This document shows, in pieces, positions 828 to 8,244 of a stretch of 11,461 nt of DNA (its first letter is position 1; the number at the start of each line of letters is the position of its first letter). The notes beneath the pieces were generated by a model. That model was not told the origin of the DNA. It did not search any database and saw nothing but the letters and a program-made list of their open reading frames with translations. A program made the position numbers and the translations under genes. Source of the DNA: a virus; UHGV virus genome UHGV-1556960; one strand, written 5' to 3'.

Positions 828-1388
828 TTAGTGCATGATGTTTGCCATCTCATAGGCGTCAGCCAGTAACTCCATCTCTGACTTGTTCAGCAGGGTGAAT
901 TCTTTCTTGCCTCCAACCACACCATCGGCATGAACAGGGACCAGCCAGGGGTATTTTGCTCTAACTTCAGCCGGTGCTGCATGCTGGTGGTGCCATCTAC
1001 AAAGTGGCAATTGCTTTTTATGACAACCCGGCGCGGTACGACCGGCGATATGGTGCAGAGACACCTCATTAGATATTACTCCATGCATATAGCAGGCAAT
1101 GCAGGGGAGAGTGCCAAGAGCATTGGCGATGCGCCGTTCCTCCGCCGTTGGTGTTCTCCCCTTCAAGCCACGAGATTTTATTTTTACCGCGCTTTTCCGC
1201 GTTTTGCTGGCTGGTGGGCGCTCTTTCTGTTTAGCGATACGGCGGTCGATAGTATCCCGCATTTTCTGATATTGAGATTCTCGCCAGACCGGATCAGCCA
1301 ACTTCTCCCGTTGCCGAGCGATCGCTCGTTCTCTGGCTGCCTTCTGCCACTTGCGGCACTGTTCAATTTTTTGTTCGATTGTTTTCAT
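828..1388 (-). CDS. ref: Ref, RecA-dependent HNH-type nuclease (recombination enhancement function), 186 aa
   Basis: 186-aa ORF at the position ref occupies in P1, with an HNH-like Cys/His cluster (CIACYMHG...HHIAG...CHKK...CRWHHQH) in the C-terminal half. Length matches my recollection of P1 Ref. No obvious SD upstream of the ATG. Confidence 0.85.
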   Translation of the reverse strand: MKTIEQKIEQCRKWQKAARERAIARQREKLADPVWRESQYQKMRDTIDRRIAKQKERPPASKTRKSAVKIKSRGLKGRTPTAEERRIANALGTLPCIACYMHGVISNEVSLHHIAGRTAPGCHKKQLPLCRWHHQHAAPAEVRAKYPWLVPVHADGVVGGKKEFTLLNKSEMELLADAYEMANIMH

Positions 1389-1394
1389 ATGGTC

Positions 1395-1420
1395 AAAAAA
1401 AAGGCGGCCTAATGGCCGCC
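1395..1420 (-). terminator. Strong intrinsic terminator in the ref leader, ending 6 nt before the ref ATG
   Basis: Minus-strand RNA GGCGGCC-AUUA-GGCCGCC (7-bp GC stem) followed by U8, then GACCAU and the ref AUG. Confidence 0.6.
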
Positions 1421-1476
1421 TATGATGTCAAGGAGTGAAGTAATGGCAACGTCTTCGTAGTTGACAAAAACTGCGG

Positions 1477-1510
1477 CTCAATTATAGCAACCAATTAGAG
1501 CAATTAAAGT
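1477..1510 (-). promoter_or_regulatory. Candidate ref promoter with overlapping C1 operator-like sites (Op2a/Op2b position)
   Basis: Minus-strand reads ...ACTTTAATTGCTCTAATTGGTTGCTATAATTGAG. ATTGCTCTAAT matches the C1 operator core; a consensus TATAAT -10 lies at plus coordinates 1481-1486 with a second partial operator (TTGCTATAAT) overlapping it. Confidence 0.5.
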
Positions 1511-1610
1511 TGTTTATTTATCGCGAATCACATTTTTTCACTTCAGTACCTGTGTGCTATACTCCTTCTTGATTGATTGGATGCGGAATACAAACCCGCT
1601 CTTTTGTGCA

Positions 1611-1640
1611 GCCTGGCTCCTTGCCAGGCTTTTTTTTATT
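1611..1640 (+). terminator. Plus-strand intrinsic terminator-like hairpin (antisense to the cre operon), abutting the stop of the 103-aa ORF
   Basis: GCCTGGC-TCCTT-GCCAGGC followed by T8 on the plus strand. A smaller hairpin (GCGG-N9-CCGC then TCTTTTGT) sits just upstream at about 1583-1606. Confidence 0.4.
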
Positions 1641-5066: not shown

Positions 5067-6182
5067 TTATTCAGCCGCCACCGGTTTTAACAAGCCAGCA
5101 TCGAGCAGTTTACGCGTCAACCACTGTTGGCCTTTCCCCGTTAATTGGGGCGTCAGCCGTATCTGGTAGCCCTCTTCATCATCCAGCACCACTTCTTTCA
5201 CTGTGAAATATCCGGCGTTTATGTACTGCTGGAACGGCACATTTTTACGTCCACCGGACGCAATCAGAATGCCGTTCTCCCGTAACCAGGCAAACAGCGC
5301 ATTTTGTTTAAGTCCAACGACCTTTGCAAAATTCCCAATCAGGATCCCCTTAGCCACTGATACCCGGTCGGCAAAATCGACTTTGGGGGCTGCGGCCACC
5401 AGCTGCTGATTTAGCTGATGGGCTTTCTGTTCCAGAAGTTGCTTTTGTTCAGCCAGTTCGGCAGCAAGGCGCAGAGCTTCTGGAAGCGTCTGGGGGATTG
5501 CGATCGGTTGCTGTTCTTTTTGTCGGAAGTAGCTGTCTTCCAGTTTTTCAAAGAATGCCCATGCCTGATCGGTTTCGATCATTTTAGCGTGGCGGGCTGC
5601 GCCGCGTTCCGTCCAGAGGATGAGTGAGCGGGCTTTAGGAGAGATAGGATTTTGTGAGTTACTTAAAGTCACCCGCAAATTGTTCAAATCATCTCCAATA
5701 ACTTTATAGAAATGCTTGCCTTCACAAAAACGTTCAGCATTACGGGAAAAGTTCTTCTTGATGTTATCCGCATCTGTCCCATACCCCTTAGCAAGGATCT
5801 TAGTTGTCACTACACGCACTCCCAGCCATTCCAGAACGGGAATTTCATCAGACTGATTCTGAACAACCACCAGCTCCGATTCCTGAACTGAAGGTGCATG
5901 AGTTTTTTCTGATTTAACGTTAGTTGCTTTCATTCTGTGTGCCTCCTTGCGTGTTTCGGCTGCGACGGTTGCGTAATTCAGATGCCCCTGTTCGAGCAGG
6001 TATTCGCGGATATCAGACAACAGAATGCGGTGAACAGCGTTCTTGTCCTTTCTCCGGTAAAGTTGTTTGGTGATCATGAAGTAGTTGGCAATAACGCCCG
6101 GTATATCCCTGGTACTGATACAGGATGTGTGCTGTTCAATTGCCTCAATCATTTCTTCACGGGTGACTAATGACGTTCTCAT
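5067..6182 (-). CDS. ant1: Antirepressor (Ant1/Ant2-type), 371 aa, with an in-frame internal start giving a nested 288-aa product
   Basis: The C-terminal region (...FADRVSVAKGILIGNFAKVVGLKQNALFAWLRENGILIASGGRKNVPFQQYINAGYF...) looks like a phage antirepressor KilAC/ANT domain, and the middle resembles a Bro-N/ORF6N-type domain. The start overlaps the icd stop (ATGA), with AGGAGGG in the icd 3' end. An in-frame ATG at 5931-5933 is preceded by AAGGAGG; the two products would be about 41 and 32 kDa, as described for P1 Ant1/Ant2. Confidence 0.8.
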   Translation of the reverse strand: MRTSLVTREEMIEAIEQHTSCISTRDIPGVIANYFMITKQLYRRKDKNAVHRILLSDIREYLLEQGHLNYATVAAETRKEAHRMKATNVKSEKTHAPSVQESELVVVQNQSDEIPVLEWLGVRVVTTKILAKGYGTDADNIKKNFSRNAERFCEGKHFYKVIGDDLNNLRVTLSNSQNPISPKARSLILWTERGAARHAKMIETDQAWAFFEKLEDSYFRQKEQQPIAIPQTLPEALRLAAELAEQKQLLEQKAHQLNQQLVAAAPKVDFADRVSVAKGILIGNFAKVVGLKQNALFAWLRENGILIASGGRKNVPFQQYINAGYFTVKEVVLDDEEGYQIRLTPQLTGKGQQWLTRKLLDAGLLKPVAAE

Positions 6183-6400
6183 AGTCCCTCCTGAGCAGAA
6201 GCGTTAACAGGGAGGCACCAGTAACTGAGAGAGTTGCGCGAATCAGTGGAAAAGCGGGCAGAGAAAATGCAGGGAGCGTCAGGAAGCTGAGAACGGGCCT
6301 CATCTTCTGTCGGTGCAATAACGAAGTGATAGTGACGTTTCTGGCAGGAATAGAAGCGCCAAATGAATTCAGGATGAGTTGGGGTAGGGACAGTAGCCAT
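6179..6400 (-). CDS. icd: Icd-like small protein (cell division inhibitor family), 73 aa, translationally coupled to ant
   Basis: 73-aa ORF with an AGGAGG SD 8 nt upstream; its stop overlaps the ant start by 4 nt. Architecture matches the P1 immI icd-ant pair. Confidence 0.65.
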   Translation of the reverse strand: MATVPTPTHPEFIWRFYSCQKRHYHFVIAPTEDEARSQLPDAPCIFSARFSTDSRNSLSYWCLPVNASAQEGL

Positions 6401-6430
6401 AATGGCAGCCTCCTTTGACTAAGTTAAGGA

Positions 6431-6720
6431 GCTACCGCGTGAGGTCTCAATCTCAATGGCGGTAGCACTGACTGGGTTGAGACTACCGGCGTCAAAGGGA
6501 ACCGGCCTGCCTTTCGGCAGCCCAGCCAGCACTACCATTGATTTCGGAGCTAAACGCTACGTATGGCTGTGCGATGGCATGACACAAAAAAAGACGCTTT
6601 CGGCGTCTGTGTCGCCTTTGACATTATCCGGGGTCTCAATCCCGGCACCCGTTTTACTGAGGTGCCTGATAAGCATAAACCGAAAATGCCTCAAGGCGCA
6701 AGAGGTCAGGCTCAATGTAA
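6431..6720 (-). ncRNA. Leader/small-RNA region of the icd-ant operon with c4-like antisense features; exact RNA ends not determinable
   Basis: On the minus-strand transcript: a hairpin with UUGAGAC in its loop (plus 6628-6645), an intrinsic terminator (plus 6585-6608), the complementary GUCUCAA (plus 6477-6483), and an 8-bp-stem hairpin with AUUGAGAUUGAGACC in its loop (plus 6431-6466) about 30 nt before the icd SD. Confidence 0.4.
6585..6608 (-). terminator. Intrinsic terminator inside the icd-ant leader
   Basis: Minus-strand RNA AGACGC-CGAAA-GCGUCU followed by U7. Confidence 0.55.
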
Positions 6721-6739
6721 CATCGGTAGTTAAAAAACA

Positions 6740-6756
6740 CAATTTATTAGAGCAAA
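6740..6756 (-). promoter_or_regulatory. C1 operator at the head of the icd-ant operon (Op51-like function), just after the pacB stop
   Basis: Plus strand CAATTTATTAGAGCAAA is 15/17 against the reverse complement of the operator consensus. Confidence 0.6.
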
Positions 6757-6759
6757 TAT

Positions 6760-8244
6760 TCATTCATTAAGCCATGCCAGAGCTTCATCAACCTGCGCTT
6801 CGTCTTCGACGCTAAGCACTTCATCCTGGGGAACATAATCCGCCAGCATAGCGAAACAATATGTATCCCAATGGTCTGGTGAGTGCAGGTTGAGTTTTTT
6901 CTTCATATCCTCCTTACTCATCACCTTCCATTGACCTGCGGAGTTAATCCCTACAGGGATTTTCGACGCTTCCTCAATAGTTTCATTACCCTTATCCAGT
7001 CTCATACGACCAGATTTTACGGCCTCTGCGGCTTGAACGTTGGCATAAGCACGTTTATCAAAGTACAGGCTCTTATCTTCACGGCTATGCATCTTTTTAC
7101 CCCAGCGTATACGCTGTACGGTAATACCATAATACTCGTACATCAGATCCGCCGTTGCTTTACCCAGGCCATCGCCGTCTATCGCTATGGTGATATTGGG
7201 GAATCGCTCAGGATTACATTCTGCGAAAATTTTGGCGGCAAGCTGCGTTTCTGTAACGTCTGTGTATTCCAGCATTCGATAGTTGATTACACGGCGTTTA
7301 TTTCGCTGGCCGGACACCATCATGATATTGATAACGGACTTATCCCGTCCTGTACCACCAGCAACGTCCACACATGCAAGCCAGCCCCATCCTTTGGCAA
7401 TCTTGACTTTCCGCCGCGTCGCACGTTCAACCTCATCACGTCCAAGAAGGAATCCGTCCTGTGATTTAGGGAATAGGCCGCGTACCTTAATCATGTACAT
7501 AGGGTTATCACGCCCGCCGTACTCCGCCAGCTTCATTTTGATAAATTCTGGCGTTACCAGCGGTGATTCCTCACTATTAAGCGTGATCGCCGTATAAACG
7601 CCATCTGGGTTACCAGGACGCTTGGCCAGTTTATGGTGAGTATCGTAGAAATAGCCGCTTGGGCGTGTAGGCTGTGACAGTAATAAGATGCGGTTATCCT
7701 GTCCGGTAAGAGCACCGGTGATGATACCGAAAGCTCTATCACTGACACCGGAGGCTTCATCGATAATATACAGAAGATGATCTGCGTGTTCACCGGCGAG
7801 AGCTTCTTCACTTCCCAGACGAAAGCCCTTCGGTACTACAGTCCATACACCTTTACCAGTAACCTCATAGAAAGCGGTTTCTGTCAGAACAAAATAATCA
7901 GCAAGCCATGGAAAACGGCTGGTGGCAGTAGCCCAGTTTATCTTGATGTACTTGAATATACCGGTCATTACCTGCTGAATTTTGTTCGCAACGATAATGG
8001 CTCGGGCACCGGGATACATGATTATGAACAACATGATCATGATAGAAGTCATGTCTGATTTCCCGGTACCGTGGCCAGACGAAACAGATGTCTTGCTACC
8101 CTGTTCCTGCACAGACTCAATAATCAGATCCTGCTGCCAGGTAGGTGTTTTGCCGAACAAAACATCAGCGGCCGCAATCCAGTCATAACGATATAGCGCC
8201 ACCAGCTCGCGCCAACGTGGATCCGTTACGCAACTTCTGGCCAT
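6760..8244 (-). CDS. pacB: PacB, terminase large (ATPase/nuclease) subunit, 494 aa
   Basis: 494-aa ORF directly downstream of pacA with a 1-nt stop/start overlap. Walker A-like GHGTGKS and Walker B-like [10 protein letters not shown] motifs are present. Size matches P1 PacB. Confidence 0.9.

Follow-up and report, generated by a model that had tools for sequence, protein, structure and literature searches.

A predicted intrinsic terminator separating the C1-controlled promoter of the nuclease gene ref from its start codon in a P1/P7-like phage

How does the message for the phage nuclease Ref come to be made, if a strong-looking terminator stands between the repressor-controlled promoter of the gene and its start codon? 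We addressed this question in a stretch of 11,461 nucleotides from the virus genome UHGV-1556960 (the whole of this stretch is referred to as the window). The window is that of a P1/P7-like phage (by sequence comparison over 401 nt around the ref leader, P7 is 97.3% and P1 96.8% identical to it), and its genes are arranged in the order cra-cre-c8-ref-mat, all on the minus strand; the Ref product (PF16786) has hundreds of homologues. The ref locus of P1 (Windle 1988; AF234172, Lobocka et al. 2004) is orthologous to the window locus. The features on which the argument turns are as follows.

3258-3037, minus strand: cra
3029-1998, minus strand: cre
1947-1636, minus strand: c8
1610-1638, plus strand: hairpin just after the c8 stop, with a U8 tail on the plus strand only
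1517-1523, minus strand: H-NS nucleation motif CGATAAA, reported for the ref 5' region (PMC4713147)
1481-1509, minus strand: promoter P2ref, with a weak -35 (CTTTAA, 1509-1504) and an extended -10 (TGCTATAAT, 1489-1481)
1488-1504, minus strand: C1 repressor operator Oref, the 17-mer ATTGCTCTAATTGGTTG, homologous to the annotated Oref of P1
1422-1474, minus strand: ref leader upstream of the terminator, 53 nt, including the conserved GTCAACTACGAAGAC
1422-1449, minus strand: predicted promoter P1ref (TTGCCA at 1449-1444, 16-nt spacer, TG-n-CATCAT at 1430-1422)
1395-1421, minus strand: predicted intrinsic terminator (attenuator), stem 1421-1414 with 1409-1402, loop ATTA 1413-1410, U8 1402-1395
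1386-1394, minus strand: spacer GACCAT without a Shine-Dalgarno (SD) sequence (1394-1389) and ref ATG (1388-1386)
1388-828, minus strand: ref, 186 aa, Ref-family RecA-dependent HNH nuclease (PF16786)
mat, minus strand, last in the gene order

The original prediction, made from this DNA alone, had placed a C1-controlled promoter at TATAAT 1481-1486, overlapped by operator-like sequence; this arrangement is present, with the refinement that the operator covers the TG of the extended -10 and stops 2 nt before the hexamer. The hexamer (1486-1481) is preceded by TGC, which makes the extended -10 (TGCTATAAT) a perfect one, and Oref spans the weak -35, the spacer and the TG of this element. At 1504-1494 Oref contains a perfect copy of the 11-nt operator core ATTGCTCTAAT (seven matches to the core in the window, against 0.29 expected), and the 17-mer, which overlaps the sigma-70 promoter, agrees at 13 of 17 positions with the established asymmetric 17-bp C1 operator consensus of P1, ATTGCTCTAATAAATTT; because of its four mismatches it lay outside a scan that allowed three. 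Among ref-carrying relatives TATAAT is invariant throughout, and so is the operator core in every leader except L031, from which an insertion has removed it. Bof/Lxc is reportedly also implicated in ref repression, according to the title of one paper. The P1 GenBank record AF234172 annotates P2ref (-35 at 1957-1962 and -10 at 1980-1985, in P1 coordinates), an overlapping "monovalent C1 controlled operator Oref", and P1ref as a second, predicted promoter, and all of these features map base for base onto the window; from the spacing, we infer a P2ref start site at about 1474. In P1, ref RNA rises 73-fold once C1.100 is heat-inactivated, a rise that is lower and slightly later than those of ssb, dmt and kilA, and H-NS binds the ref 5' regulatory region (CGATAAA motif; PMC4713147, Ronayne et al. 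2016).

A second perfect C1-operator core, ATTGCTCTAATTCTTTG, lies on the minus strand at 1964-1980, between the cre stop and the c8 start and 17-33 nt upstream of the c8 ATG. P1 reads ATTGCTATAATTATTTG at this position, an extended -10 (TGCTATAAT) and not a clean operator core, and AF234172 annotates neither an operator nor a -10 there. From these sequences, c8 of the window phage may be under direct C1 control, or may be expressed from a promoter other than the annotated Pc8.

Every part of the strong intrinsic terminator that had been claimed between the C1-controlled promoter and the ref ATG is found in place, and the 7-bp GC hairpin with U8 ending 6 nt before the ATG has gained one A-U pair. 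The hairpin, AGGCGGCC-ATTA-GGCCGCCT (1421-1402), thus has 8 bp (seven G-C and one A-U, the latter specific to the window variant); folded alone it reaches -17.1 kcal/mol (z = -5.6), a stability equalled in none of 200 shuffles. When a terminator was defined strictly, by seven or more Watson-Crick pairs, six or more of them G-C, and seven or more T in 8, the two strands of the 11.4-kb window together gave two matches and 200 dinucleotide shuffles gave none. The terminator is unidirectional, with U8 on the minus strand and no T-run in the plus-strand reading, and it combines the features by which intrinsic terminators are recognized: a G+C-rich stem of 5-14 bp, a loop of 3-8 nt and an adjoining U-tract of at least 6 nt. 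Its hairpin follows the P2ref -10 at a distance of 60-79 nt and precedes the ref ATG by 14 nt, which is the position of an attenuator, between a promoter annotated in P1 and the start codon of the gene. The title of a 1988 paper by Windle, Laufer and Hays (J Bacteriol 170:4881) names the P1 ref promoter-operator and attenuator, exactly the two elements of the original prediction. The reading of the locus as one of transcription attenuation is supported accordingly, as being that of the published P1 ref "attenuator", so far as the 1988 title describes it, and the hairpin and U8 very probably form a functional Rho-independent terminator in the ref 5' leader, the element published under that name. 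We found no P1 transcript-end, start-site or Term-seq data in the literature searched.

P1 and the window align base for base over operator, -10, P1ref hexamers, hairpin, U8 and ATG. The differences are an A at 1421 where P1 has T (creating the eighth, A-U, stem pair), a spacer that is one base longer (GACCAT versus GCCAT in P1), and four substitutions in the operator and immediately before it; AF234172 has no terminator feature annotated at the ref-leader position.

Conservation was evaluated on about 160 locus instances: 85 anchored on Ref, with 54 distinct leaders among them, and 80 anchored on c8. The stem GGCGGCC/GGCCGCC is unbroken in all loci (over 14 distinct variants, pairing at the seven G-C positions is retained in 100% of cells), and the only changes in it are one-sided C-to-U substitutions giving G.U or U.G (five rows, three pairs), which pair on the minus-strand RNA only, since the plus strand would read A.C at these places. 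Outside the stem the sequence varies more: the loop differs at three of its four positions (ATTA, ATCA, TAAA, GAAA, GCAA), the U-run is 6-10 nt long, and the spacer before the ref ATG reads GCCAT, GACCAT or ACCTT, none of them SD-like. No compensatory double substitutions occur in the stem among the 14 variants, because the divergence among these relatives is low, and common descent may account in part for the invariance of the stem. Distant Ref homologues (44-67% identity; Pantoea, Citrobacter, Buttiauxella, Klebsiella and Leclercia prophages, Vibrio) have no G+C-rich hairpin and U-run before the ATG; the terminator is therefore not intrinsic to Ref biology, and, on the loci compared, it is specific to the P1/P7 clade. 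Two plasmids in which homology ends upstream of the hairpin, pPK5074 and pSF10EC-2, were set aside as uninformative transposon insertions.

Relatives that have no ref bear on what the terminator is for. Among the 80 c8-anchored relatives, 63 carry ref, four are disrupted by insertions and 13 are without it; these 13, and two E. albertii plasmids, still have the operator-promoter, leader and hairpin as well as a T6 run, and in them the terminator adjoins the 3' end of a convergent icd-antirepressor operon. In some ref-less lineages decay has reached both the -10 (CATAAT, TACAAT) and the operator core but not the stem, a pattern that fits relaxed selection on the promoter. On the other side of the intergenic region, the c8-proximal hairpin (1610-1630) is followed on the minus strand by UGCACAAAAG and has no U-run there; judged by this, it is a poor terminator for cre-c8 transcripts, which probably run on to the ref-proximal terminator. 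Because ref-less relatives keep the latter at the end of the cre-c8 module, it would also insulate against upstream transcription, serving that module with or without ref, and if so then read-through from cre would provide no bypass. The suggestion that ref is expressed "mainly by read-through from the cre operon" is not supported: cre/c8 transcripts would meet the ref terminator too, its retention in ref-less relatives argues for a stop of read-through, and ref RNA responds 73-fold to C1 inactivation (PMC4713147).

When ref-carrying and ref-less P1-like elements are compared, their homology breaks off within 2-3 nt of the U-run end (seen in the two E. albertii plasmids, L002 and L003, and in 13 viral contigs, for example L106, L145 and L161), which suggests module exchange exactly at the terminator. 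The same intergenic region holds a further candidate element.

1535-1638, plus strand: candidate small RNA antisense to the c8-ref intergenic region

Its promoter-like site (TTTTCA, 17-nt spacer, TG-n-TATACT, 1535-1563) would give an RNA of about 70 nt with two hairpins (-23.2 kcal/mol, z = -3.0), ending in a perfect terminator, AGCCTGGC-TCCTT-GCCAGGCT followed by U8 (1610-1638). From its -10 through its terminator it is the best-conserved non-coding part of the region, with substitutions mostly in loops and one that is G.U on the plus strand and A.C on the minus strand; it is unannotated in P1 AF234172, and no Rfam family matches it.

A 73-fold rise of ref RNA below a strong-looking terminator implies that the terminator is leaky, bypassed or antiterminated. 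The most likely reading of the sequence is, in our judgment, that it attenuates P2ref transcripts, being either leaky or relieved by a factor, and that P1ref may offer a minor way round it. On this model, transcripts from P2ref (controlled by C1 at Oref) would start near 1474 and would mostly stop at 1395-1400, giving RNAs of about 75-80 nt, and most of the cre-c8 read-through transcripts that arrive from upstream would stop at the same positions; the terminator would add to repression by C1, Bof/Lxc and H-NS (PMC4713147), and the nuclease would be silent in lysogens. After C1 inactivation, ref mRNA would come from the fraction of P2ref transcripts that reads through, perhaps assisted by an antitermination factor of phage or host origin (an involvement that the 1988 title implies), and possibly also from the predicted P1ref, whose start inside the 5' arm of the hairpin would leave its transcripts unterminated. 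Layered silencing of this kind (C1 operator, H-NS, leader terminator and SD-less translation) makes biological sense because Ref, a RecA-dependent nuclease, is toxic to lysogeny (PMC4713147): ref cuts lysogenization 40-fold, and Ref is linked to an enhanced SOS response and to ciprofloxacin synergy (PMC4713147).

An unlikely alternative gives P1ref the leading part: the terminator would be mainly a cre-c8 insulator, ref would be expressed chiefly from P1ref inside the hairpin, and the productive ref transcript would not be attenuated at all. P1ref was found in our consensus scan and is listed in AF234172 as a "predicted sigma 70 promoter P1ref"; its -10 (1427-1422) ends one base before the terminator stem, so that its transcripts would begin within the 5' arm and would not be terminated. 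Indeed, RNAs predicted to begin at 1417-1413 (5-9 nt below the -10) form a stem of at most 4 bp, detached from the U-run (at most -7.6 kcal/mol), and cannot form the terminator. This predicted start, which the original prediction missed, comes close to what had been named there as its refutation, namely transcripts initiating downstream of the hairpin. The TG-n-(C/A)ATCAT motif is conserved, and retention of the terminator without ref in 13 of the 80 relatives is what an insulator would lead one to expect. However, P1ref is a prediction with weak hexamers (CATCAT matches at four of six positions, and the -35 varies among TTGCCA, GTGCCA, TGGCCA and TTGCTA), it lies outside the operator although ref is strongly C1-dependent (PMC4713147), and its motif is equally conserved in ref-less relatives, so that its conservation may be due to something else. 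The deletion study of 1988, moreover, presents itself in its title as evidence for attenuator control.

It is improbable that the leader is a regulated RNA switch of the trp type, in which an antiterminator fold or the translation of a leader peptide would set whether the terminator forms. The elements for such a switch can be drawn: pairing is possible between GUUGCC (1450-1445) and GGCGGC (1420-1415), a 5' hairpin (GCAGUUUUUGU with ACGAAGAC..UGC) is a possible anti-antiterminator that would complete a 1:2, 2:3, 3:4 layout, and the window has a mini-ORF, UUG-CCA-...-UAG, whose stop codon overlaps the stem base. Forbidding the terminator, however, costs 8.3-12.7 kcal/mol over five 5' ends (8.3 from the earliest, 10.5-12.7 otherwise), and we rejected a self-contained riboswitch-like or antiterminator fold on this ground, the best terminator-free fold (GUUGCC-GGCGGC) being worse by that amount. 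The register of the 5' hairpin differs between variants, the two sequence types pairing differently, and covariation in this hairpin, likewise rejected, is not cleanly seen. The mini-ORF is without an SD; in P1-type sequences its stop codon is missing, in others indels throw it out of frame, and no conserved upstream ORF was found in the ref leader among the relatives aligned; indels in the U-run (T6-T10) and spacer shift the frame across the terminator in close relatives, which disposes of a leader peptide as well as of an N-terminal Ref extension. A search of Rfam with 1300-1750 returned nothing at threshold, the sub-threshold matches being generic terminator-containing sRNA models. Folds, ORFs and Rfam thus yielded no antiterminator, leader peptide or ligand/factor site of the sort that defines an attenuator, and a trans-acting factor is possibly what relieves termination. 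The trp, his and pheST attenuators likewise place a terminator in the 5' leader, between promoter and first codon, whereas the window has neither a conserved leader ORF nor an energetically competitive antiterminator.

Equally doubtful is the proposal that P2ref, leader and terminator together make up a gene in their own right, its product an RNA of about 80 nt that is repressed by C1 and has its own function, Ref being made only from P1ref transcripts; such a function is suggested by the persistence of the cassette in P1-like plasmids from which ref has been lost, and a related possibility is that it works together with the plus-strand small-RNA candidate 150 nt upstream. Slightly less probable still is that the transcript of about 80 nt from P2ref to the terminator is a functional C1-controlled small RNA and regulation of ref secondary: promoter, leader and terminator do persist in several diverged ref-less lineages, the conservation profile is nearly invariant over GTCAACTACGAAGAC in the leader, and the short PR'-tR' transcript of Stx phage is a regulatory sRNA (PMC7547250), but the -10 and operator core decay in some ref-less variants where the hairpin does not, no Rfam family matches, and the leader pairs with none of the 13 initiation regions in the window better than shuffled controls. 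Duplex predictions for the plus-strand candidate against the same 13 regions likewise gave nothing above the shuffled controls.

With termination in a leaky or factor-relieved attenuator as the preferred reading, there remains the step of translation. The original prediction found no recognizable SD for ref, and we agree: its anti-SD pairing (-1.5 kcal/mol) is the weakest among the 11 ORFs with a trusted start codon, pairing also being weak for cre (-2.5 kcal/mol) and c8 (-2.8 kcal/mol); mat, at +0.6 kcal/mol, is outside these 11, its listed GTG start being probably wrong. The ATG at 1388 is taken as the true start of ref because the in-frame stretch upstream holds no other start codon and because distant Ref homologues also begin MKT.... 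The further claim, that initiation at ref is weak, is not established, because no structure at all is predicted between the U-run and +30, a region that is A/U-rich and has AAA as the second codon. An unstructured A/U-rich region and an AAA second codon favour SD-independent, S1-dependent initiation. Translation of ref would then begin at ATG 1388 without an SD in this unstructured, A/U-rich region, where U8 may serve S1 as a binding site as well.

Lambda PR'-tR' with Q and the StxS short transcript of Stx phage (PMC7547250) offer a likeness: a strong terminator likewise stands shortly below a phage promoter, the default product is a short RNA, and the downstream gene needs read-through. The window promoter is repressor-controlled, whereas that of the lambdoid PR'-tR' is constitutive, and, unlike there, only one small gene lies downstream of the terminator. 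No factor resembling Q or N is known for P1, nor is a nut or qut site; none was identified in the window either, and Rfam gave no match in 1300-1750. The arrangement itself, going by the title of the 1988 paper, is already known for P1 ref, and because this layer of control was published that long ago, its confirmation adds little; what is modestly new here is that the terminator travels with the cre-c8 module even without ref, which points to an insulator role, and that the question of how ref RNA passes the terminator can be put more sharply, as one of leakiness, a factor, or the hairpin-internal P1ref.

Elsewhere in the window, between pacB and c1, there is an immI-like module with the following parts.

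5067-6770, minus strand: immI-like module
6587-6665, minus strand: isrK-like RNA (RF01394)
6455-6542, minus strand: C4 antisense RNA (Rfam RF01695, 75 bits)
6179-6400, minus strand: icd of the immI-like module
5067-6182, minus strand: antirepressor of the immI-like module

The phages RCS47, JL22 and vB_EcoM-673R5 have this module arranged as in the window, and phiW39, vB_EcoM-813R1 and SJ46 match 65-66% of the 5-kb immI-like stretch (among the eight matches listed, from which P1 and P7 are absent); the icd-antirepressor operon that converges on the ref-leader terminator in ref-less relatives is similar to that of the module. Within the mat ORF, at 660-678 on the minus strand, there is a terminator-like hairpin, AAGCCGCCGCTGGTGGCTT, followed by TTCTTTTTTG.
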